In this document: positions 9,155-22,828 of the stretch, in pieces
Layout: each line of letters begins with the position of its first letter
Numbering within the stretch: the stretch's first letter is position 1
DNA from: Escherichia typing phage 1
Reading direction: 5' to 3' (one strand)
Length of the DNA stretch: 64,000 nucleotides
Sequence record: KP869100
Notes under the pieces: model-generated
Seen by the model: only the letters and a program-made list of their open reading frames with translations
What the model was told of the DNA's origin: nothing
Databases searched by the model: none
Translations under genes and position numbers: made by a program

Positions 9155-9940
9155 TTAGTTCTTTGCGTCTAAGAAGGTAACTTCTGGTGAAGAGAAGACC
9201 GTCTCGATATCCTCATCAGTTCTTGCATAAATATATGTATCTGCATCACTGCCAAATGTTACGGCTATCCTGTGATTGCTCTTCGACAGGTGGGTAACTA
9301 GAGCGTTACTTAGAGACATCTTCTCAACCGGAGGGTTACTTTGATGTATCTTACCTTTTCTTCGTCTGAAGAGGGTAACTGTATCATCTTTGAACGTTAC
9401 TACACCTGCAAAGTATTCTGGTTCACAGTAGTTATTCCAACCTGAGCGTAACTTGTGGTACATCTCTCCTTCGTAGACATACAGATAAACATCTACACTC
9501 TTCATCACCTGATTAATGATAACTGTGACGGCTTGAGGGTCAAGTCCACCGATACCTGCACCAATCATAGGTAAACCAACCTTCTTCAACTGATTAACTT
9601 CACAGTATCTGTTAAGCTGTTTCAAAGATGACTCTAAAGCACTGTATCGGGCATCTTTACCAGTCTTAAGCTGAGTGTAAAGGTTAGCTATACGACCTTG
9701 TTTTAAACGTGCTACAGAGAAATTACCCAGTAAATTTTCACAGGGTTTGTGTCCTATACCACCTGCATACAGATAAACTTCTGTATCGGTCTCATATGCT
9801 TTTGGGTAAAGTTTAGAAATCTTGTCAGCGATACCTGCACCCATTAAATTCATACAGTTGCAACCGTGACCGATGATGTCAAACTTACCTTTATCAAATG
9901 CGGCAAAGATATCACCATTAATTATTTTTACAATACCCAT
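9155..9940 (-). CDS. macro-domain protein (ADP-ribose binding/processing) with about 90-aa C-terminal extension
   Basis: 261 aa; GDIFAAF..FDIIGHGCNCMNLMGAGIA and GLPMIGAGIGGL resemble the two macro-domain signature blocks. Confidence 0.55.
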   Translation of the reverse strand: MGIVKIINGDIFAAFDKGKFDIIGHGCNCMNLMGAGIADKISKLYPKAYETDTEVYLYAGGIGHKPCENLLGNFSVARLKQGRIANLYTQLKTGKDARYSALESSLKQLNRYCEVNQLKKVGLPMIGAGIGGLDPQAVTVIINQVMKSVDVYLYVYEGEMYHKLRSGWNNYCEPEYFAGVVTFKDDTVTLFRRRKGKIHQSNPPVEKMSLSNALVTHLSKSNHRIAVTFGSDADTYIYARTDEDIETVFSSPEVTFLDAKN

Positions 9941-13492: not shown

Positions 13493-13592
13493 TGGTTCTC
13501 CTGTTTAGTTTATCGTGACATCAATTATACAGCACTCTGCACAAAATACAAATAAAAAAGGCCGCCGAAGCAGCCTTTTAAGAAATTACTTA

Positions 13593-14702
13593 TTAGATTT
13601 CACGTTTACGTTGAGAGATGAGTTCACCAGCAGTGCCAACGATGACATGCAAAGCTTCAGTCTTACCGTCCCATGCTTCCAGCACTTTACGTTGATTATC
13701 AACGATTGCTGCAACTTCATAACGAGAGGAACGCATCTTCATATCATTGTAATCAGTTGGAACAGATACAACATCTCGTGGATGTACGCGAACCTTCAGG
13801 ATTGTATCACCTGAGAAGCAACGAACATAATCCCAAGCACCAACATGAAGACCTTGAGAGCAAGTTACGTTACGGTTATTATCAACCATCCAACGTGGCA
13901 TTTCTACAATGTTACCCAAATCATTAGGCACTTTGTAGGTGTGAGAGTCAACCAGCTTGCCTTCACGAGTAGAGACTTTCTTCCAACCAATGATGTAGCC
14001 TTCTTCATCAATTTCAACATCAAGGTGAGATACAAATCCCCAAAGTTGTTCTACAGAATCTTTAGATGGGTTTTCCATCAGTTTTTCGAAGAACATTACA
14101 AGTCGTTCAAAACCTTTATCGCCAGTTTTCATCATGTGAAGAATACGGTCAACCAGAGTAGAACGCATCTCAACAGCACCGTAGAATAGCTTGTCGCCTT
14201 TGATTGTGATAGCACCCTGAGTGAAGTTTTCGATAGACTTACGAATGTTCATCAGTTCAAATGCTTTCTTGAACTGACCTTTCACAACATGAACTACAAT
14301 CTCTTGATAGTTCGGATGAGTAGACTCAACAATTTCAGATTCTGAACCATAAGTCATAATTACAGAATCACCAGTAATCATGTACTCAATCTTGTCATCT
14401 TTCTGCATAGCTTCGTGCAGTTTATTTACTGGAGCTTTCTGTACAGTGTCTTTAACGACCTTTTCAACTGGTTTGCCAGCTTTCTTTTTAAAAGTCTTAG
14501 CAAATTGTTTCAAAGTCTTCGTAGCTGGTGTAGAAGTTGCCTTCTTCTTGCCTTTTAAGGTTGCTTCATGACGCTCTACAGCACGACCAACTGAACGGGT
14601 TGAAGTATTGAACTTCTGTGCAATAGCTGTTTTAGTCAGCTTACCTTCTTTAACCAGTTTGTAAATTTCTGCGTCAATCTGTGCTTTAGTTTTAGTAGTC
14701 AT
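13593..14702 (-). CDS. putative rIIB-like protein with N-terminal HTH
   Basis: 369 aa; immediately downstream of the rIIA-like gene as in T4; HTH-like LTKTAIAQKFNTSTRSVGRAVERH; assigned by synteny only. Confidence 0.4.
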   Translation of the reverse strand: MTTKTKAQIDAEIYKLVKEGKLTKTAIAQKFNTSTRSVGRAVERHEATLKGKKKATSTPATKTLKQFAKTFKKKAGKPVEKVVKDTVQKAPVNKLHEAMQKDDKIEYMITGDSVIMTYGSESEIVESTHPNYQEIVVHVVKGQFKKAFELMNIRKSIENFTQGAITIKGDKLFYGAVEMRSTLVDRILHMMKTGDKGFERLVMFFEKLMENPSKDSVEQLWGFVSHLDVEIDEEGYIIGWKKVSTREGKLVDSHTYKVPNDLGNIVEMPRWMVDNNRNVTCSQGLHVGAWDYVRCFSGDTILKVRVHPRDVVSVPTDYNDMKMRSSRYEVAAIVDNQRKVLEAWDGKTEALHVIVGTAGELISQRKREI

Positions 14703-14781: not shown

Positions 14782-17148
14782 TTAATCGTAAATTGTTGTA
14801 CCTTCTGGAACACATTTCACATTAAAGCCTAAAAACTTACTCACTTCGATAGGTGATACTTTATTCCAATCTAAGTGTGAAAGCAAGAAGTTTTCTTGTT
14901 TTCTTTTTGAAAGATAGTTTGTCAGCTTGATAACCATGCGGTCACCTGCTTTTTTAATCTTTTTGTACAGTTTTGTGTCATTATCAAGGCATGACTTCAA
15001 ATCCTGAAGAACACTGATAGTGTAAGTGTATGCAAACGGTGCAGCCACATACTGAATCTTACCGAACATTGCCTCAACAGCATCTTCATTCCCTTCTAAG
15101 AAGATTGTCTTAATAGTATCCCTTGAATAACAATACCCGCGAGAAATCTTCCTGTTATTGAACGTAAAGTTTCTGGCAATAATCCAACTGCTTGTAAGGT
15201 CGAGGACACCATCCATGTAGATGCGTGTCATATACCTGTTATGGTTAATCCAATGAACATCAGTTAAGCTGTCGTTCAAGAGCTTCTCATCTACTTCAAT
15301 CCAGTCTTCTGGTATCTTTTTCCAATTTGCTTTTCGGAAAACATAGACTGTCTTGCCTGTAACATTAGCAACTGACTTAGCTACATCCTCTGGAGATGAG
15401 CAAAAACATCTACCATCAACTGTGTCACCTACTGCCTTAATATAAAGCTGAGGCTCTTCAATTGTGTCTAAGTCTTCTGACACCTCTTTGTATGAAGCTT
15501 TAGTTTCTGCTGGAACAGCTTTCCAGAGTTTTACAACACCCCTTACAGCTTCTTTACGCTGATAGTGGTGTTCCTTATCAGACATCTTCACAATCTTTAA
15601 CAAGCTTTTATCAAGTTTGTGTAGATTGATTAAATCATCTAACTCTTTTTCAGTCGAGAATACAAAGACAATACCATTGTATCTGTGAAACAGATTTGAC
15701 TCACTGGCGTAGTCTCGACATGCACCACGCAAAATTTGATTGCGTCCTACAGTCTTCTCAGTACCGTTTTTATTGCGACGGTCATTAATCACGAACAAAA
15801 ACTGTTCAATTTGGCTTTTACGCATTGCACCAAAGATATTGAACATGCTTGCCTCTTGAGTGTAGGAAAGTGCTGTTGCACGAATCTTACTCTCTAAAGA
15901 GTTGAACTTGACATAAGCAACTGGGTCATAAAGATAATCTACTTTAGGGATATTGTTCCCGTTCCTATCAACCTTAATATTGCCTTTACCGTCACGTTCA
16001 TAAATGACTGAGCCGTCTTCTGCGTAGATAATTCCACGACGAATGTTTAACAATTCTTCTTCCAGAGAATCAAGCTTAATGCCTCCCCACTCTAGCTTTG
16101 GACACACAGCATTAAACATCTCTCGTGAGTTCAAACGTAGCTCTGCATAAGCCTGTGCAGCATCCATGAGTGTAGGTTGGCTATTAACTTTCTTGATAAC
16201 ATCCTTTGTAATTGCTTCAGTTATCTTTTTGGTAGCCTCGATGATAACATTTTTTGTCGTATCATTCATCTGCAATGCTTCACGAGAAGCTGCTATAGCA
16301 ACTGAACCAATAGGCATGTAGATGTTTACAAGGTCTACGCTCCTACGGAAAAACTCTGGCAAGACTTTGAAGAAATCATCACCAAGTAATGCTTCCATGT
16401 TCACTGGATAGGCAATATTACCCATCACCACATTAAACTCTGTCCTGTTACCACTAGAACGCCAGCTTTGCTTATGAATCATGGCATCATAAACACCTTC
16501 TTCACGGGCAATGACGTTCATATCTGCTAATACATCGTCGTACTCAATATTACTTTCTGGTTTTACAGTGAAGTATGAGTACACATTTCCAGCTTCTTCA
16601 AAGAACTTTGAGATACGGTGGTCAGCAACTGCCACACGTACAGCTAAACCATTAGGTTCTTTTGTTGGGTTAGTGGTCAGCTTAGTTACTTGAGGGATAC
16701 CATTCTCAAGATAAACAGAGTACTTATTAACAACACCATCAACATAGCTAGATACTGTGAATGACTGAGCAATTGCAAATGGGGATTTTGAGCCGATACC
16801 CATTGCACCAATGTAGTCATTAGAGTCATTCTTCGTAGAAGCCCCGTAGTTTAGGTACAAACTCATAACTTTATCATGAGTCAATCCAGTTCCAAAATCA
16901 CGAACTTCAAAGTAAGGCTCAAAACGAGTAGGTAAATGCACATGGAACGGAATGTTCTCTTTTCCAGCTTCTTTCTGAGCATCTACTGCGTTACATGACA
17001 GTTCACGAATCACTGCCCTTTCTTTAAAGGTATATACACCAGAACTCAAAAGGCTGAACATCTCAGGTGTCATTGTAATCTGTGCTTGAGACGTCTCTAA
17101 AGAAGTTGAACTCTTAATCACTTCTGCGTGGTCATTTACCATGCGCAT
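14782..17148 (-). CDS. rIIA: rIIA-like protein (GHKL ATPase fold)
   Basis: 788 aa; GHKL motifs IRELSCNAVDA, DFGTGLT, GAMGIGSKS. Confidence 0.65.
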   Translation of the reverse strand: MRMVNDHAEVIKSSTSLETSQAQITMTPEMFSLLSSGVYTFKERAVIRELSCNAVDAQKEAGKENIPFHVHLPTRFEPYFEVRDFGTGLTHDKVMSLYLNYGASTKNDSNDYIGAMGIGSKSPFAIAQSFTVSSYVDGVVNKYSVYLENGIPQVTKLTTNPTKEPNGLAVRVAVADHRISKFFEEAGNVYSYFTVKPESNIEYDDVLADMNVIAREEGVYDAMIHKQSWRSSGNRTEFNVVMGNIAYPVNMEALLGDDFFKVLPEFFRRSVDLVNIYMPIGSVAIAASREALQMNDTTKNVIIEATKKITEAITKDVIKKVNSQPTLMDAAQAYAELRLNSREMFNAVCPKLEWGGIKLDSLEEELLNIRRGIIYAEDGSVIYERDGKGNIKVDRNGNNIPKVDYLYDPVAYVKFNSLESKIRATALSYTQEASMFNIFGAMRKSQIEQFLFVINDRRNKNGTEKTVGRNQILRGACRDYASESNLFHRYNGIVFVFSTEKELDDLINLHKLDKSLLKIVKMSDKEHHYQRKEAVRGVVKLWKAVPAETKASYKEVSEDLDTIEEPQLYIKAVGDTVDGRCFCSSPEDVAKSVANVTGKTVYVFRKANWKKIPEDWIEVDEKLLNDSLTDVHWINHNRYMTRIYMDGVLDLTSSWIIARNFTFNNRKISRGYCYSRDTIKTIFLEGNEDAVEAMFGKIQYVAAPFAYTYTISVLQDLKSCLDNDTKLYKKIKKAGDRMVIKLTNYLSKRKQENFLLSHLDWNKVSPIEVSKFLGFNVKCVPEGTTIYD

Positions 17149-17176
17149 AATACTTTCCTCTTAGTTTACTGTTAAA

Positions 17177-17353
17177 TTACTTATTAAACATTTTACCAGA
17201 ACCACCACACATAGGGCAACAACCTGCTCTTGTATACCCTTCTCCGTTACAGTAGTCACACTTCTTGTGTTCTGCAAAGTACTTACAAAGAAGATAAACA
17301 AGGACTGCTACACTACCAAGTGACAGTAAAATTTCTACCCAATATGCTTGCAT
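17177..17353 (-). CDS. unlisted 58-aa membrane-anchored zinc-ribbon peptide
   Basis: Hand-translated MQAYWVEILLSLGSVAVLVYLLCKYFAEHKKCDYCNGEGYTRAGCCPMCGGSGKMFNK; TM segment + CxxC..CxxC; below the track length cutoff. Confidence 0.35.
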   Translation of the reverse strand: MQAYWVEILLSLGSVAVLVYLLCKYFAEHKKCDYCNGEGYTRAGCCPMCGGSGKMFNK

Positions 17354-17682
17354 GACTCACCCCTCATGTTTTTGTAAAGGATAAAGCTTCTGTCATGGAC
17401 GATACTTGTAGATACTGCAAAGTTACTTTCAAGCATCTGTTTGTTTGGATTGTAGAAGCTTTTTTTAAACTCGTCAAGTGCAAATTGGTGATGGTCTGGA
17501 AGACCTTTTACACAAACTTTTATTGTGATTGCTGCTGCAATCTTGCCAGTCAGTTCTTCTTTAGCTGCTACTAAAATTTTGTTAAGGAACTTTTTACCAT
17601 CTTCAGGTTTCTTAATGTTCTCCCAACGTTCTTCTAAGATAATGTTGATGTTCATCTCTTTGATTTTCATAGTTTTCACCAA
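17335..17682 (-). CDS. hypothetical protein
   Basis: 115-aa ORF. Confidence 0.45.
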   Translation of the reverse strand: MVKTMKIKEMNINIILEERWENIKKPEDGKKFLNKILVAAKEELTGKIAAAITIKVCVKGLPDHHQFALDEFKKSFYNPNKQMLESNFAVSTSIVHDRSFILYKNMRGESCKHIG

Positions 17683-18020
17683 GTCCAGTTAATGAGTATG
17701 CCATCGAAACCTTTTGCTAAAGGTACACCCTCATGTTCATAAAATTCAGGATTAACTTCGAATCCACGATTTTCAATATACTCTATCATGTATTTCATTA
17801 CAAAGCTAATCTCTTCGTAGTCATCTGGGTCTCTGCCAAAGAACTGTTCTATGACAAACATACCTTCTTTTGTAGCAAATTGGCAGTGGTGATTGTAGAT
17901 ACCTTCACAAAACTTTTCAAACTTTTCTTTACCGAGAACTTTAAGGATGTCTGTATAGGCAACTTGTAAGTATTTCGGTTGTACAGGTTTATTGTTAAAC
18001 CATATGGAAAGGTTGTCCAT
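17676..18020 (-). CDS. hypothetical protein
   Basis: 114-aa ORF; preceded by terminator and SD. Confidence 0.45.
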   Translation of the reverse strand: MDNLSIWFNNKPVQPKYLQVAYTDILKVLGKEKFEKFCEGIYNHHCQFATKEGMFVIEQFFGRDPDDYEEISFVMKYMIEYIENRGFEVNPEFYEHEGVPLAKGFDGILINWTW

Positions 18021-18032
18021 AGCATTCTCCAG

Positions 18033-18058
18033 AAATTAAAAAGGCTCCCGTAGGAGCC
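18033..18058 (-). terminator. intrinsic terminator (GGCTCC-CGTA-GGAGCC)
   Basis: Perfect 6-bp stem at 18043-18058 followed on the minus strand by TTTTTAATTT. Confidence 0.6.
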
Positions 18059-18073
18059 TCTTATCATATACTT

Positions 18074-19855
18074 TTAAAGCTGCTTGTCAATATTATTTCG
18101 AATATCACCAAGAGTTGTGTAACCGTACTGCTCAGAGTCGCTAAAGACTAAACGTAAAGCACAAGCTGGATGTTCAAGTGCATCTGCAAAGCTCTGGAAT
18201 CCATAGCCATCTACAGCTTTCAAATTCTCACCATCCCACATAGGTGCTACACCACCAAAGGCAGATTTCTTAACACCACTATCTGTTTTAGGGTCTTTTG
18301 CAAGCATAATCTCTTTGCCACCAATGCTTGCAAGAGTTGCTTTGACAGCAAATGCAAAGGTGTCACGAGTCATGTACTGGTAAGTGTAAGAGCCTACACC
18401 AAACACCACGTTAGAGCTTGCAAACCCCATTTCATACAGACGCTTCAGGATTTCGTTTGCACGTTCCAACGTGATAGAGTCGCCATAGATAAGTCCAATG
18501 TGCTCATCCAGTACCTTAAAACCTTTAGAGTTGATAGTTCCTCCAAAGATGTTATACAAGGTCTTAATAGCTCCATCAATCTCTGCTACAGGGCGTGTTA
18601 CAACGTTTGCAGAACCAACCATATAAGCGTTCTTCAACATCACTGTATCAGCAACTTCAAAGTCTTCTCTGTCAACAACCATTTCGTAGCCTTCTGACAG
18701 TAGCCATCCAGCAATACCATAGTTGATGTTTTCAAGCTTCATGTTAAGAACAGCATTCAACATTGTGTCACTGACTTCCAGCTTGCTTAGGTGCTCGTAA
18801 TAAGCCTTCTTAGCACATTCTAAGTGGATTGCTTTATAACCTGTGACAATATGTACAGGGTCTCCAGAGTCAGGGCGAATTACCAGTTTGCCATCACGTT
18901 CCATAATTTCTTTACGAAGTGCTGGTAAGATTTCTGACACAGTTCTCCAGAAGTTATAAGTATCTGAAACAATACTTGCAATACCTGTTGGGTAAGTTTC
19001 TGTTAAGAAACGACGGAAGGTTTGTAACTCACCTTTAAAGCGTCTTTCTTCTTCAATCAACTCATTACCACCTTCCCAAGCAATGTTTGCACACATTACA
19101 GAGTGCTCAGTGGCTGGTACAGAGCTACCAATATCAGAGATTGGGTAGGACTGTCCATAGATTCGTTTAGCCGTGTATACAGCAGGGAAGCTATCAGTCC
19201 CTTTAAAGCTGGTTAAGTGACCTACAGCGTTAAATGCGTCATCAGTAAAGCCGGACATACCACGCATAGCAAAATCATGGCACTGATAAGGTAAATGTAA
19301 GTCATTGTCACAAGTAAGGTCAGCCCACTTCTTACAGATGCGTTTGTAATGCAATGCAATAGTTGCAATGGTGCAAGCCTTCCAAATTTCAGCAGAGAAA
19401 GCATCTTCCAGATAACCTGCTACCCAATGAAAACCTGAAACAGTGTTCTGAAAGACAATCATCGGGACACGCATTGGAACAACTGTGCCTTCTTCTACAG
19501 CGTATACTTCAACTGGTAGATAACCTAAGTCGTGAAGTGCTTCCCAATGCTCTCGACCGATAGCATCTTTACCCAGAACACCATTCATGACTTCTAAGAT
19601 TTCATCAATGGCTTCTTTTTTATCACGTTCAAAGAAAGTGGCATTCCAGTGGTCTATCAAGTAATCTTTAACAAAACGTTGAATACCAAAAGCCACTACA
19701 CCGTCAATTGCTAAAGGGCTGTTAAACCATTTATCACTACGTGGTGTCAGGTTGAACATCAAGTATTCTGTTGCACTAGGATACTGGTAAACATGACCAG
19801 ATTTGTAAGCATCTGCATTTAAACCTGCTGGTACTGCATAAAGTGATTTAGTCAT
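18074..19855 (-). CDS. nicotinamide phosphoribosyltransferase-like enzyme (NAMPT/NadV family; possibly Namat)
   Basis: 593 aa; N-terminus AVPAGLNADAYKSGHVYQYP typical of the NAMPT family; adjacent to a Prs-like gene. Confidence 0.75.
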   Translation of the reverse strand: MTKSLYAVPAGLNADAYKSGHVYQYPSATEYLMFNLTPRSDKWFNSPLAIDGVVAFGIQRFVKDYLIDHWNATFFERDKKEAIDEILEVMNGVLGKDAIGREHWEALHDLGYLPVEVYAVEEGTVVPMRVPMIVFQNTVSGFHWVAGYLEDAFSAEIWKACTIATIALHYKRICKKWADLTCDNDLHLPYQCHDFAMRGMSGFTDDAFNAVGHLTSFKGTDSFPAVYTAKRIYGQSYPISDIGSSVPATEHSVMCANIAWEGGNELIEEERRFKGELQTFRRFLTETYPTGIASIVSDTYNFWRTVSEILPALRKEIMERDGKLVIRPDSGDPVHIVTGYKAIHLECAKKAYYEHLSKLEVSDTMLNAVLNMKLENINYGIAGWLLSEGYEMVVDREDFEVADTVMLKNAYMVGSANVVTRPVAEIDGAIKTLYNIFGGTINSKGFKVLDEHIGLIYGDSITLERANEILKRLYEMGFASSNVVFGVGSYTYQYMTRDTFAFAVKATLASIGGKEIMLAKDPKTDSGVKKSAFGGVAPMWDGENLKAVDGYGFQSFADALEHPACALRLVFSDSEQYGYTTLGDIRNNIDKQL

Positions 19856-19867
19856 CTTTTAATCTCT

Positions 19868-19891
19868 CTCAAAATGGGGCTTTTAAGCCCC
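19868..19891 (-). terminator. hairpin between the Prs-like and NAMPT-like genes (possible attenuating terminator)
   Basis: GGGGCT-TTTA-AGCCCC at 19876-19891 with a short T-run on the minus strand. Confidence 0.35.
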
Positions 19892-19900
19892 TATAAAGTT

Positions 19901-20797
19901 TCAATCAAGGTTTGCTACAGTAACTTGACCATAATGTGTTAAGCCACGGTCTTTAGCTTCCCCTAAAGAGTTTGTAGTGTAGATATGGTCAATACCATTG
20001 TCAAGAAGGTTTTCAACATCTTTAGAGAAGATACCATGTGTTACATAGAGTTCCACACGTTTTGTACCTGCTTCACGGAGATGCTTAGCTGCTTCTATGA
20101 AGGTTCGACCACCATCACAGATATCATCCAGAATCATGACGGTTTTATCTGTCAAATCAACATCATCAAGGATTCGCATACCAGTAATTTCACCAGTCTT
20201 AAGGTTACGCACCTTAGACATTGTGATATATGGTTTATCCACCTCTTTAGCGGTCTCTGCAACCTTCTTAGCAGCACCTGCATCTGGGGCTACTAAGTAA
20301 TCAACCAGTGGGTCATTTGCATAGTGGACTGCAATCTCCTTTTGAGGAATACTCTGGAAGCAGTTAAACAGGTTATCTGGTACATAGCTGTGAGGGTCAA
20401 CTGCACAGACTGCGCCAAATCCCATTGCATTAATCTGTTTAGCAAAAACCTTTAAAGCTGCTGCGTCACCTTTAAACATGTGACGGTCATATCGTGCATT
20501 TGGTAAGTAGTAAAAGATGACAGTCTTTAAAGCATAATCATGAGGAATTAAATCATCAATTGCTTCTTTAGCAAGTGCCACAGCAAACAATGTGTCCTTG
20601 TCATAACCTTTTACAATCATAATCACATTGTTGATGGATGATGCTGCATAAGCAGTAAAATCAACAAACTCTGGCGAAAAGTGTCCACCAATCTCACCAG
20701 AAGGGAATTGGACGATGTTAAACTCTTCTTCATGAGTCCCTTTAGTTGGTGAATGAACTGTAACACGGATAGATGTTTTCATAGTTTTCTCTCTCAA
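19901..20797 (-). CDS. ribose-phosphate pyrophosphokinase-like enzyme (Prs family; possibly Adps)
   Basis: 298 aa; VMILDDICDGGRTF matches the Prs ribose-phosphate binding loop; N-terminal half diverges from canonical Prs. Confidence 0.75.
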   Translation of the reverse strand: MREKTMKTSIRVTVHSPTKGTHEEEFNIVQFPSGEIGGHFSPEFVDFTAYAASSINNVIMIVKGYDKDTLFAVALAKEAIDDLIPHDYALKTVIFYYLPNARYDRHMFKGDAAALKVFAKQINAMGFGAVCAVDPHSYVPDNLFNCFQSIPQKEIAVHYANDPLVDYLVAPDAGAAKKVAETAKEVDKPYITMSKVRNLKTGEITGMRILDDVDLTDKTVMILDDICDGGRTFIEAAKHLREAGTKRVELYVTHGIFSKDVENLLDNGIDHIYTTNSLGEAKDRGLTHYGQVTVANLD

Positions 20798-21072
20798 TCA
20801 AAAGTTACGTTTGTTACTGCCATTGCAGATTTGCATTTTGCAGGGTCTACAACGTGATAAAGTACACTACAGTTACCTGTGCTGTCTGGTACAGGTTTAA
20901 CCCATTGTTGCTTGACAGTTGGTTCGCCTAAGTCTTTGTAAGAACCATCTGTAAAGTTGTTTACCATCTCAAGTGCAATTGGCTCTGGAACATGACCACG
21001 TATCATGTACATTTCACAACCATTACCTCCTTCACTGACTAATGGTAAAATCTCCCACTTTTCTTTAGTCAT
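20794..21072 (-). CDS. hypothetical protein
   Basis: 92-aa ORF coupled to neighbours. Confidence 0.45.
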   Translation of the reverse strand: MTKEKWEILPLVSEGGNGCEMYMIRGHVPEPIALEMVNNFTDGSYKDLGEPTVKQQWVKPVPDSTGNCSVLYHVVDPAKCKSAMAVTNVTFD

Positions 21073-21580
21073 TATAAGTTGCCCTATAAACTGTCTCGAA
21101 CTTCAACAGGAGAGATATTGCCAAATCTGTATAGTTGTTGTCAAGCACATCTGGCATATTATTTTTGATATATTTCTCTTGCTCTTCATAGGTCATCTTA
21201 GGGATACTTAGGAGGCTATCTCCTTGCTTCTGGTTATCAGCTTTAGTTTGGATAAACCAGTTTGCACAGTGATGTTCACCACCTTTTGTAACAGGTTTGT
21301 GATGACCTAATGTAAATATTTGCTTACCCGTATACCTGCAAAGATTGTTCAGTGTTGCAATGGTGTTCTTCACAACACACCATTCATACAGGTTATCTAT
21401 TGTGTAGTGTGGGTAATAACGGACAAGTGCTCTTTCACGTAAGTTACCACGATTCCAAAGAACCATGTGATTAGAATTTGAAGGGTCATATTTGTGGGAG
21501 TCTATAAACTCTTGACGCTCATCAAAGCTGAGTCTTAGAACTGACATTGCAACCGAACGTTTCAGGTTTGACAGATACAT
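21065..21580 (-). mobile_element. HNH endonuclease (homing-endonuclease-like)
   Basis: 171 aa; LGHHKPVTKGGEHHCANWFIQTKADNQKQG resembles the HNH motif. Confidence 0.55.
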
Positions 21581-21631
21581 TTTACCTCCAAAATAAAAAG
21601 GGAACCTTTACAGTCCCCTTATAGTATCTGT

Positions 21632-21952
21632 TTACTGAGCTACTTTCAAGATTCTTGTGAATGGAATTTCACTTTCTTCCATTAACTCTTTAGTTTCTTT
21701 GGTAACTTTCACAAAGTTATCTAGGCAGATAATCTTCTTATCTTTCTTACTATAGGTTAATTTAACCTTTTCAATATCTTTCTCAGAGCTTTTCTCTTCA
21801 TTGAAGAGTTTTACAGCCTCTTTGAATGGGAGATATGAGCCATCATTATCACTAATGAATCCTGTACCACAATAGTAGGAGTTATGTTCTCTAGCCATAA
21901 ACTGGCACAGTAAGAAAATCTGTAATTTACGAGTGTTATAAACTTTGCTCAT
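21632..21952 (-). CDS. hypothetical protein
   Basis: 106-aa ORF. Confidence 0.45.
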   Translation of the reverse strand: MSKVYNTRKLQIFLLCQFMAREHNSYYCGTGFISDNDGSYLPFKEAVKLFNEEKSSEKDIEKVKLTYSKKDKKIICLDNFVKVTKETKELMEESEIPFTRILKVAQ

Positions 21953-21954
21953 GA

Positions 21955-22218
21955 TTATTTAGCCTTCTTATTACGTTTACGGTTACGGTTACGAGCTTTC
22001 TTAGCTGCGCGTTTAATTGCTGCTGCACCAGTCGGACGATGGGCTTGCTTCTTACCACCTTTGCCACGGCCTACATAGATGCTTTTCATAATCTCATTAG
22101 CCAGTTTCTCATCCATCTTGAAGTTCTGCATAAGATGAGTCACATCAACACCAGTGAGCATACCTAATGAAGCTAGTGCTGCTTTCACTTTTGATTTAAA
22201 ACTATTCCAGAGTCCCAT
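21955..22218 (-). CDS. small protein with highly basic C-terminus
   Basis: 87 aa; C-terminal KRAAKKARNRNRKRNKKAK. Confidence 0.45.
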   Translation of the reverse strand: MGLWNSFKSKVKAALASLGMLTGVDVTHLMQNFKMDEKLANEIMKSIYVGRGKGGKKQAHRPTGAAAIKRAAKKARNRNRKRNKKAK

Positions 22219-22342
22219 TTCATATCTCTCTCAATCTTTTCACAAAATGTTTTAAGTTCTTCTTCAGTGATACCAACGGTTAAGTTTGTTCTGTAGAACA
22301 TTGTAAAGTGGCTTTTACCGATAACCTACTTTATAACGAGAT

Positions 22343-22828
22343 TTACTCTGCTCTCCACTGACAATCACCTTGCCATCCGTACTCTTTTCTCCAGAGGTTT
22401 TGGTTATCTGAACCACGATACGGTTTAACTGTTGGTTTAGATGAATCATACTTACCATCAATCACCACGTCAACATATTTCATCACATCAAGGTGAATTT
22501 TTTCATGTAACTGAAAACCTGTCCAGAGCCAGATAGATTTTTCTGGGTAAACGGTTTTAATACGTTTGCATATGTTGGTAACCTCTTGAATATTTCTATC
22601 ATCTAGAGGTTCTCCACCAAGTATTGACAGCCCACTGATGGCATTATCATCCATTAACTTAATGATGCCATAAAGGTTTGCATAAGTGAACTCTTTACCA
22701 GCATTAAACTTCCAAGATTCCTTATTAAAGCAACCTTCACAGTGATGCTTACAACCAGCTACGAAGAGGCTTACACGAACCCCTTCACCATTAGCTGTGT
22801 CAAATGGTCGAATCTCCATGTAATTCAT
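22343..22828 (-). CDS. nrdG: anaerobic ribonucleotide reductase activating protein (radical SAM)
   Basis: 161 aa; CKHHCEGC is a CxxxCxxC radical-SAM cluster motif; near nrdD. Confidence 0.8.
   Translation of the reverse strand: MNYMEIRPFDTANGEGVRVSLFVAGCKHHCEGCFNKESWKFNAGKEFTYANLYGIIKLMDDNAISGLSILGGEPLDDRNIQEVTNICKRIKTVYPEKSIWLWTGFQLHEKIHLDVMKYVDVVIDGKYDSSKPTVKPYRGSDNQNLWRKEYGWQGDCQWRAE

Follow-up and report, generated by a model that had tools for sequence, protein, structure and literature searches.

A probable Felixounavirus NARP1 gene pair in Escherichia typing phage 1

Two adjoining minus-strand genes of Escherichia typing phage 1 very probably constitute the NARP1 system of a Felixounavirus. 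NARP1 was discovered in Escherichia phage JohannRWettstein (Bas63, MZ501086, Felixounavirus), where it comprises genes 79-80 (Osterman et al., bioRxiv 10.1101/2024.02.11.579819). The analysis covered a 64,000-nucleotide stretch of record KP869100 (the window), which contains adjoining open reading frames (ORFs) at 18074..19855 (593 amino acids (aa), ATG start) and 19901..20797 (298 aa when begun at a TTG). The Prs-family gene lies upstream of the NAMPT-family gene, in the same orientation and 45 nt away. The pair is already known, in that the system has been published and both proteins have been catalogued by accession. The features of the locus and of one unlinked gene are as follows.

9155..9940, minus strand: unlinked macro-domain protein, 261 aa, with a macro domain at about aa 1-158 and a C-terminal extension of ~100 aa without a family match
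18039..18062, minus strand: terminator-like hairpin and T run, 12 nt past the namat stop codon
18074..19855, minus strand: namat, predicted nicotinamide ADP-ribose transferase of the NAMPT family, second gene of the predicted NARP1, 593 aa
18594..18826, minus strand: extra segment within namat, ~78 aa (about aa 344-421), following the RPDSGD motif
19863..19870, minus strand: Shine-Dalgarno-like GAGAGAGA before the namat ATG, kept across Ounavirinae spacers
19876..19891, minus strand: intergenic hairpin GGGGCU-UAAA-AGCCCC followed by AUUUU, in the 45-nt adps-namat spacer
19901..20782, minus strand: adps, predicted ADP-ribose pyrophosphokinase of the Prs family, first gene of the predicted NARP1, 293 aa from the ATG at 20782
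20788..20795, minus strand: Shine-Dalgarno-like GAGAGAGA before adps, 5 nt 5' of the ATG; Bas63 differs by one base
20794..21580, minus strand: two co-oriented ORFs upstream of adps, 171 aa (weakly HNH-like) and 92 aa

According to the NARP1 model, the NAD+ of an infected cell would be split into ADP-ribose and nicotinamide by host NADase effectors with SIR2, TIR or SEFIR domains. Adps (19901-20782) would then pyrophosphorylate ADP-ribose at its 1'' position, with ATP as the donor, yielding ADPR-PP, and Namat (18074-19855) would swap the pyrophosphate for nicotinamide, yielding NAD+ directly. Rebuilding NAD+ in this way would cancel abortive-infection defences based on NAD+ depletion. The chemistry has been shown with the enzymes of phage SPbetaL1, and activities have also been shown for the P. 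foliorum and DyoEdafos enzymes. Genetic evidence came from Bas63: deleting genes 79-80 together lowered plating on SIR2-HerA ~20-fold and worsened the loss of NAD+, and ADPR-PP was seen only when wild-type phage met the defence system (10.1101/2024.02.11.579819). This counter-defence phenotype is independent of host PncC and NadR. The window enzymes, including the divergent N-terminal allele of Adps, are predicted to catalyse the same reactions.

The gene pair and its counterpart in Bas63

Evidence for the NARP1 assignment came from comparison with Bas63. Positions 17000-22000 of the window are 100% identical to KP869113 (E. coli O157 typing phage 15), a Felixounavirus like Bas63. Namat is identical to Bas63 gp80 at 583 of 593 residues (98%), and Adps is identical to gp79 at 227 of 293 (77%), without gaps. 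The two loci share gene order, gene lengths (882 and 1782 nt), the 45-nt spacer with its hairpin stem, the SCL and SCH motifs of Namat, and their neighbours, which run NrdD...NrdG...79-80...rIIA-rIIB. They differ in Adps residues 1-178, which are only 66% identical, and in a small upstream block near nrdG. The published catalogue points the same way. The exact window Adps sequence appears as KP869113_00113 in Supplementary Table 1, with the entry “Namat within 10 genes: Yes”, and the window Namat appears as KP869113_00112 in Supplementary Table 2, where its label “Adps-associated” means that Prs/Adps or Nmnat homologues occur within the same phage genome (10.1101/2024.02.11.579819). An earlier, sequence-only reading of this DNA had proposed a NARP1-type Adps/Namat pair, and the proposal is borne out by orthology and synteny with Bas63 79-80, by the clamp motif in Namat and by the listing of both proteins by accession. 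That reading had also considered the choice between NARP1 and NMN salvage to be beyond what sequence could decide; orthology, the clamp motif and the published listing settle it for NARP1.

The two genes had been described as encoding 593 and 298 aa, back to back on one strand. Both ORFs exist, but adps almost certainly starts at the ATG at 20782, giving a protein of 293 aa, because the TTG of the longer form has no Shine-Dalgarno sequence and overlaps the stop codon of the preceding ORF, GAGAGAGA precedes the ATG, and the protein begins with MKTSIRV in GenBank, in Bas63 and in the published table. The corresponding site before namat is still present in phiSUSP1 after insertion of an endonuclease gene. 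The 171-aa and 92-aa ORFs, whose orthologues are bas63_0077 and bas63_0078, are not among the known NARP1 components; lying between a terminator-like site at 21598-21620 and adps, they are possibly co-transcribed with it. At the downstream end of the pair, the annotation of phage Mordin marks a terminator at the position equivalent to 18039..18062.

Family membership of the two enzymes

Both proteins match their families at levels well outside chance. The 593-aa protein matches Pfam NAPRTase (7.5e-35) and NAMPT_N, as well as phrog_448 “nicotinamide phosphoribosyl transferase” (1.7e-202). Within this family, the published adenine-clamp motif marks Namat, and it is present in the window protein: the SCH reads GSYTYQYMTRD from G488 to D498, with Y490 and Y494. 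At this position SPbetaL1 Namat has GSFTYQYNTRD, while the true Nampt of Xcc has GGALLQKVDRD. The SCL (R39-S-D-K42-W43) is identical to that of Bas63, the published example of the Lys type; the stacking residue is either an Arg at position 3 or follows a Lys or Tyr (PMC12774641). Core residues D15, Y17, F195, R198, D221, A248, H251, R327, D329, G458 and D459 are conserved, and eight of them (D15, Y17, F195, R198, D221, H251, R327, D329) are identical to SPbetaL1 D13, Y15, F189, R192, D215, H245, R306 and D308. Both genes are under purifying selection, with an omega of 0.04 for namat.

The Prs-like protein, searched in its 298-aa form, matches Pfam Pribosyltran (4.3e-11), Pribosyl_synth (2.3e-09) and phrog_619 “ribose-phosphate pyrophosphokinase” (2.4e-96). 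It retains the ribose-phosphate binding loop, found as ILDDICDGGRTF, as the sequence-only reading had noted. The further suggestion that its N-terminal half is unlike housekeeping Prs holds in part: alignments to bacterial and eukaryotic Prs, whether by profile or by structure, begin only at about residue 87, but the RxDR and DPHS motifs of this half are conserved. K190 aligns with SPbetaL1 catalytic K162, the equivalent of B. subtilis Prs K197, and is invariant in an alignment of seven Adps sequences, which has 32 invariant columns. Among NCBIfam models, the protein falls below every housekeeping-Prs equivalog cut-off (at best 103 bits, where 296 are required), and the broad subfamily model TIGR01251 is the only one that it passes; bacterial-type models match it from about residue 87, and NF002095, the equivalog with the best score, from residue 53. 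The class of housekeeping PRPP synthases was therefore rejected, all equivalogs being far under their cut-offs and the matches not full-length. There is no published sequence signature that distinguishes Adps from Prs, and membership thus rests on orthology and the published phylogeny. Given 77% identity to the Bas63 protein, which is both a query and a member of the published Adps clade, window Adps belongs by orthology to this phage-specific clade, apart from cellular Prs. No solved Adps structure was found in the PDB copy searched, where the top match was S. solfataricus Prs (1e-17).

An alternative explanation is canonical NMN salvage, in which the Prs-like enzyme would make PRPP from ribose-5-phosphate, the NAMPT-like enzyme would convert PRPP and nicotinamide to NMN, and completion of NAD+ would fall to host NadR or PncC. 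The names given by Pfam, PHROG, NCBIfam and GenBank point to this route, and a 2022 survey from the Aravind lab treated phage NadV as NMN salvage only, with no link to Prs. Some NMN synthesis is also conceivable, since SPbetaL1 Namat still converts PRPP to NMN in vitro, at about half the rate of human Nampt. However, the window Namat bears the adenine clamp missing from true Nampt, its homologue is labelled “Adps-associated” in the published table, and the Prs-like protein lies under all Prs equivalog cut-offs. NMN salvage is therefore very improbable, and the canonical Nampt/NadV class, whether of NARP2 or of NMN salvage, was rejected on the Namat-type SCH and the published class. One of the generic names does clear its threshold: window Namat scores 469 bits against a cut-off of 405 for NCBIfam NF006629 “nicotinate phosphoribosyltransferase”. 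This is a naming artefact. Neither Adps nor Namat has a model of its own in NCBIfam, where both proteins match only the generic Prs and NAPRTase models. The sequence-only reading had proposed a profile comparison against housekeeping Prs/NAMPT and characterised Adps/Namat, and its outcome, failure of the Prs equivalogs and presence of a Namat-type SCH, favours NARP1.

NARP1 of the Bacillus phage SPbetaL1 (crystal structures 9w5w and 9w5x, PMC12774641) shares the Adps-then-Namat order and the Adps catalytic Lys, but identity to the window proteins is low, at 36% for Adps (over 191 aa) and ~50% for Namat, the window SCL uses Lys-Trp rather than the Arg40 of SPbetaL1, and window Namat has two additional segments, one of ~78 aa after RPDSGD and one of 15 aa after the catalytic His region. 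NARP2, the KVP40 NadV-NatV salvage route (Nampt plus an NMN adenylyltransferase-Nudix protein), likewise answers NAD+ depletion with a NAMPT-family enzyme; it differs in using PRPP and needing an NMN adenylyltransferase, whereas the window protein is “Adps-associated” and has the Namat clamp instead of a Nampt-type loop. Housekeeping Prs and Nampt/NadV share with NARP1 their folds and the logic of pyrophosphoryl transfer to ribose C1 followed by displacement by nicotinamide. They differ in that the NARP1 substrates ADP-ribose and ADPR-PP carry an extra AMP moiety, and bacterial and eukaryotic Prs models leave the N-terminal ~85 residues of Adps unmatched.

Variable regions of the locus

The N-terminal domain of Adps appears, as a side observation, to be a recombinant, anciently diverged allele. 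DNA identity to Bas63 falls to 61-79% over 20250-20800, against a background of 91-98%, and the recombination of such an allele into the gene would account for the low protein identity over residues 1-178; the C-terminal half of Adps is 95% identical. Omega is 0.16 in the N-terminal half, where dS is saturated, and 0.07 in the other half. The former value, with its saturated dS, indicates that the allele is old and functional. The window allele outnumbers the other in Ounavirinae (149 records at >=90% identity versus 97 at 60-80%) and always adjoins an intact Namat, and FelixO1 Adps is a chimera of the two allele types. The drop in DNA and protein identity could be taken to mean that the recombinant domain altered the substrate, regulation or activity of this phage's Adps, so that the pair behaves unlike that of Bas63, but this is even less probable than NMN salvage given the omega value, the frequency of the allele, its constant association with intact Namat, the FelixO1 chimera, and retention of the RxDR, DPHS and catalytic-Lys motifs.

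A second variable region is the extra segment of Namat, which is absent from both the crystallised SPbetaL1 Namat and true Nampt. HMMER alignment to 9w5x breaks in two here: query residues ~344-426 are skipped, and the chain has only ~6 residues opposite them. A tblastn search recovered the segment from 252 phage records only, virtually all belonging to Ounavirinae. Identity between genera is 43-49% in the segment, versus 80-82% for the remaining protein; in Ounavirinae this part of Namat, ~85 aa long, evolves fast. The structural paper on Namat does not mention the segment (PMC12774641). Both this segment and the dimorphic N-terminal domain of Adps may serve as surfaces in an arms race, for instance by letting the phage escape host proteins that sense or inhibit NARP1.

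The hairpin that the sequence-only reading had seen between the genes was found at 19876-19891, within the spacer. Folding of the 61-nt context gave -14 kcal/mol (z = -2.65). Across the Felixouna-, Moogle- and Suspvirus relatives compared (five Ounavirinae), the stem does not change, while the loop and flanks vary; in phiSUSP1, a homing-endonuclease gene stands in place of the hairpin. Since the stem is invariant, no covariation could be obtained from the Ounavirinae spacers compared. A terminator scan did not call the hairpin, its T run having only 4 T. The hairpin may act as a partial terminator or an mRNA-stability element.

An unlinked macro-domain gene and the meaning of the locus

NARP1-AP of Vibrio phage Gary (10.64898/2026.01.28.702374) adds Adpp to the Adps and Namat core, in the order Adps-Adpp-Namat. 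An Adpp inside the window operon was considered and rejected, as the flanking ORFs have no Pfam match. The window does encode an Adpp homologue, its sole macro gene (9155-9940), but this lies ~8.1 kb downstream of the pair, outside the operon, and carries the extra C-terminal ~100 aa. The protein is homologous to Adpp (local hmmsearch, E = 1e-19) and to T4 Tk.4/AdfM, with 32.3 bits against a cut-off of 22 for Pfam Macro and 4e-113 for phrog_335. Pairwise identity to published Adpp is 27-35%, with all motifs conserved, and in an alignment-based distance matrix the protein is equidistant from Adpp and AdfM. Tk.4/AdfM, an anti-DarTG2 factor of T4, is at least as close to it as Adpp. The Bas63 orthologue is gp95, which by the gene numbers of Bas63 is the 15th past namat, and the family comprises 2,792 phage records, including T4-like phages (the Tk.4 family).

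The published NARP1-AP screen considered macro genes within plus or minus 2 genes of NARP1 and would therefore have missed this one. KP869113, MZ501086 and FelixO1 were not found in the supplements of that paper (10.64898/2026.01.28.702374). Felixounaviruses might run NARP1-AP in trans, with the macro protein dephosphorylating ADPR-1''-phosphate from aRES-type defences and so feeding NARP1, but this is an unlikely, speculative proposal. In a related reading, the phage macro family to which Adpp and T4 AdfM belong might combine two activities, those of an ADPR-1''P phosphatase and a DNA de-ADP-ribosylase. For the RyDEP-extended form of NARP1, a search of all six reading frames of the window gave no hit to the RyR-domain glycosidase (best E = 0.34 by tblastn and 0.52 by hmmsearch).

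The public names of the pair, “ribose-phosphate pyrophosphokinase” and “nicotinate phosphoribosyltransferase” in GenBank, are misleading, and NF006629 would still misname the second protein. NARP1 proved recognizable to a reading of sequence only, which here amounts to the rediscovery of a published system; potentially new leads are only peripheral, namely the Adpp/AdfM-like macro protein, the lineage-specific Namat segment and the recombining N-terminal domain of Adps. For the biology of these phages, the pair would explain why the O157 typing phage and ~250 sequenced relatives should resist NAD+-depletion defences based on SIR2, TIR or SEFIR domains. Such expected resistance bears on phage host range and on the choice of phages for therapy.

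Gene pair and its identity with NARP1

Both open reading frames (ORFs) of the sequence-only reading are present at the positions given and lie on the minus strand, 18074..19855 encoding 593 aa and 19901..20797 encoding 298 aa when read from a TTG. The 298-aa form of the Prs-like gene did not stand. Its TTG lacks a ribosome-binding site and shares sequence with the stop codon of the preceding ORF, while GAGAGAGA lies 5 nt ahead of an ATG at 20782 and an identical motif precedes the ATG of the NAMPT-like gene. Because the GenBank record, Bas63 and the published table of Osterman et al. all start the protein at MKTSIRV, we assign the Prs-like protein 293 aa, starting from the ATG at 20782. The 593-aa protein matches Pfam NAPRTase (7.5e-35) and NAMPT_N, and PHROG 448, “nicotinamide phosphoribosyl transferase” (1.7e-202). 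The Prs-like protein matches Pfam Pribosyltran and Pribosyl_synth, and PHROG 619, “ribose-phosphate pyrophosphokinase” (2.4e-96). The observation of the gene pair is confirmed. A further family, PHROG 12872 (547 positions), matches both proteins.

The NAD+ reconstitution pathway NARP1 was discovered in genes 79-80 of BASEL phage Bas63 (JohannRWettstein, MZ501086; Osterman et al., bioRxiv 10.1101/2024.02.11.579819), which we confirmed to be a Felixounavirus, like the window phage. A Bas63 deletion that took out both genes together reduced plating on SIR2-HerA ~20-fold and deepened NAD+ loss; ADPR-PP was seen only when wild-type phage met the defence system, and the effect was independent of host PncC and NadR (bioRxiv 10.1101/2024.02.11.579819). 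The enzymology comes from homologues in the Bacillus phage SPbetaL1, where Adps converts ADP-ribose (ADPR) and ATP to ADPR-PP, and Namat converts ADPR-PP and nicotinamide to NAD+ (bioRxiv 10.1101/2024.02.11.579819).

Window Namat is identical to Bas63 gp80 at 583 of 593 residues and window Adps to gp79 at 227 of 293, ungapped; the gene lengths, 45-nt spacer and hairpin stem are also shared. The assayed SPbetaL1 enzymes are more distant, with only 36% identity for Adps and ~50% for Namat. The supplementary tables of Osterman et al. include the two proteins of the window itself, KP869113_00113 under Prs/Adps (“Namat within 10 genes: Yes”) and KP869113_00112 under Namat (“Adps-associated”). Supplementary Table 1 of the same study includes Shigella phage Ag3 and phages of the Klebsiella phage 0507-KN2-1 type, in which Adps and Namat appear to be fused in one polypeptide.

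A 2026 study of the SPbetaL1 Namat structure (PMC12774641) defined the features that distinguish Namat from Nampt. Residues 488-498 of window Namat read GSYTYQYMTRD, where SPbetaL1 Namat has GSFTYQYNTRD and, in contrast, a true Nampt from Xanthomonas has GGALLQKVDRD. The SCL clamp loop carries K42-W43, the Lys-type arrangement described for Bas63 (PMC12774641). Catalytic-core contacts D15, Y17, F195, R198, D221, H251, R327 and D329 are identical, and other contacts show only conservative changes (Ala for S190 and Ser for A362).

The corresponding test for Adps is indirect, there being no published Adps sequence signature. In the alignment, K190 of window Adps pairs with K162, the catalytic lysine in SPbetaL1 Adps, and is among 32 columns invariant in seven Adps sequences. 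The protein falls below every NCBIfam Prs equivalog cut-off (best 103 bits versus 296), exceeding only that of TIGR01251, a broad subfamily model. Prs structures from bacteria and eukaryotes align with window Adps only from ~residue 87, which is what lies behind the suggestion that its N-terminal half is unlike housekeeping Prs.

Comparison of both proteins with Prs and Nampt versus Adps and Namat, which had been proposed as a check, thus came out on the NARP1 side. Plain NMN salvage by the window pair is very unlikely, even though SPbetaL1 Namat retains some PRPP-dependent NMN synthesis in vitro. Orthology to Bas63 genes 79-80, the Namat motif and the accession listing all support assignment of the pair to NARP1, and the earlier statement that the choice could not be decided from sequence was over-cautious. 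GenBank records name the pair NAPRTase/NAMPT and Prs, and Namat exceeds the NCBIfam equivalog cut-off for NF006629, “nicotinate phosphoribosyltransferase” (469 bits versus 405). Since NCBIfam 20.0 contains no Adps or Namat models, misnaming of the pair will propagate.

Variable regions of Adps and Namat

DNA identity to Bas63 is 61-79% over 20250-20800, ungapped, against 91-98% on both flanks. This block corresponds to adps codons 1-178, with 66% amino acid identity, a saturated dS of ~1.55 and an omega of 0.16; the C-terminal half of Adps is 95% identical, and Namat is 98% identical with an omega of 0.04. The N-terminal allele is bimodal among phage records (149 at ≥90%, 97 at 60-80%), giving two allele classes in Ounavirinae, and FelixO1 adps is a chimera with another breakpoint. 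The N-terminal divergence reflects recombination between old functional alleles rather than decay, and the pattern points to repeated recombination events within adps, close to the boundary between the Prs domains. Two other regions are also strongly diverged from Bas63: ~22050-22400, between nrdG and an 87-aa lysine-rich ORF (15-57% identity, gapped), and ~13554-14050, within an rIIB-like gene (60-80% identity).

Namat is 593-608 aa long in Ounavirinae versus 491 aa in SPbetaL1, mainly due to a ~78-aa segment past the catalytic RPDSGD motif (~aa 344-421), with a further small extra stretch at ~aa 259-273:

18594-18826, minus strand: Namat extra segment, Ounavirinae-specific, not in crystallised SPbetaL1 Namat or Nampt

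Just 252 phage records contain the segment, nearly all of them from Ounavirinae, and it is not discussed in the structural paper (PMC12774641). At 43-49% identity between genera versus 80-82% for the remaining protein, it evolves much faster than the rest of Namat.

Possible transcription unit and spacer hairpin

Window stretch 17000-22000 is 100% identical to E. coli O157 typing phage 15 (KP869113), a Felixounavirus, and 199 phage records span ≥80% of it. The neighbourhood is typical for the genus, with nrdA, nrdB, glutaredoxin, nrdD and nrdG upstream of the pair, and rIIA, rIIB and polynucleotide kinase downstream. Four co-oriented genes, namely two small ORFs, adps and namat, lie between terminator-like hairpins:

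21620-21598, minus strand: terminator-like hairpin, upstream end of the block
21065-21580, minus strand: 171-aa ORF, weak HNH-like motif (phrog_2214, 7.5e-06); Bas63 gp77
20794-21072, minus strand: 92-aa ORF directly upstream of adps; Bas63 gp78
19876-19891, minus strand: hairpin GGGGCU-UAAA-AGCCCC inside the adps-namat spacer
18062-18039, minus strand: terminator-like hairpin, downstream end of the block

The two small ORFs may be co-transcribed with NARP1. The hairpin previously noted between the genes is present, its 61-nt context folding at -14 kcal/mol (z = -2.65). Relatives in Felixounavirus, Mooglevirus and Suspvirus keep its stem unchanged but differ in loop and flanks. In phiSUSP1, a putative homing-endonuclease gene (L007:740-1231) sits exactly in the spacer in place of the hairpin, and only the namat ribosome-binding site remains; the hairpin, although conserved, is therefore dispensable. 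It may contribute to partial termination or to mRNA stability. GC skew in the window reverses at ~38000 and ~50000, coinciding with the gene-strand switch, and no tRNA genes were found across the 64 kb.

Accessory genes

Of two published NARP1 accessories sought in the window, RyDEP is absent. The other, the macro-domain phosphatase Adpp, belongs to NARP1-AP, acts on ADPR-1''-phosphate and was described in a 2026 preprint (bioRxiv 10.64898/2026.01.28.702374); it has a homologue:

9155-9940, minus strand: macro-domain Adpp homologue, 261 aa, 8.1 kb downstream of namat; Bas63 gp95

This protein matches Adpp (hmmsearch E = 1e-19) with every macro motif kept, scores above the cut-off for Pfam Macro PF01661, matches phrog_335, “phosphatase” (4e-113), and has a unique ~100-aa C-terminal extension. 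Because the NARP1-AP screen covered only two genes on each side of NARP1, the gene lies outside the published count; KP869113, MZ501086 and FelixO1 were not found in the supplements of that paper (bioRxiv 10.64898/2026.01.28.702374).

The macro family of this protein is found in 2,792 phage records, with T4-like phages (the Tk.4 family) among them. A 2025 preprint describes T4 Tk.4 as a factor against DarTG2 and names it AdfM. The window protein is ~35% identical to both Adpp and T4 Tk.4/AdfM, and pairwise scores place it slightly nearer Tk.4 (82 bits) than Adpp (52-67 bits). Adpp and Tk.4, compared with RB27 tk.4 (L005:298-765) included, are themselves ~35% identical (64-77 bits), as close as Adpps of different host genera. 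Adpp and AdfM/Tk.4 belong to one phage macro family, and their assigned functions may overlap. Since sequence does not discriminate between the two functions for the window protein, NARP1-AP acting in trans through it has a low probability. NARP1 is an already known system, and the window record is already catalogued; the Adps allele, the Namat segment and the macro protein are modest, peripheral leads, each a candidate only.
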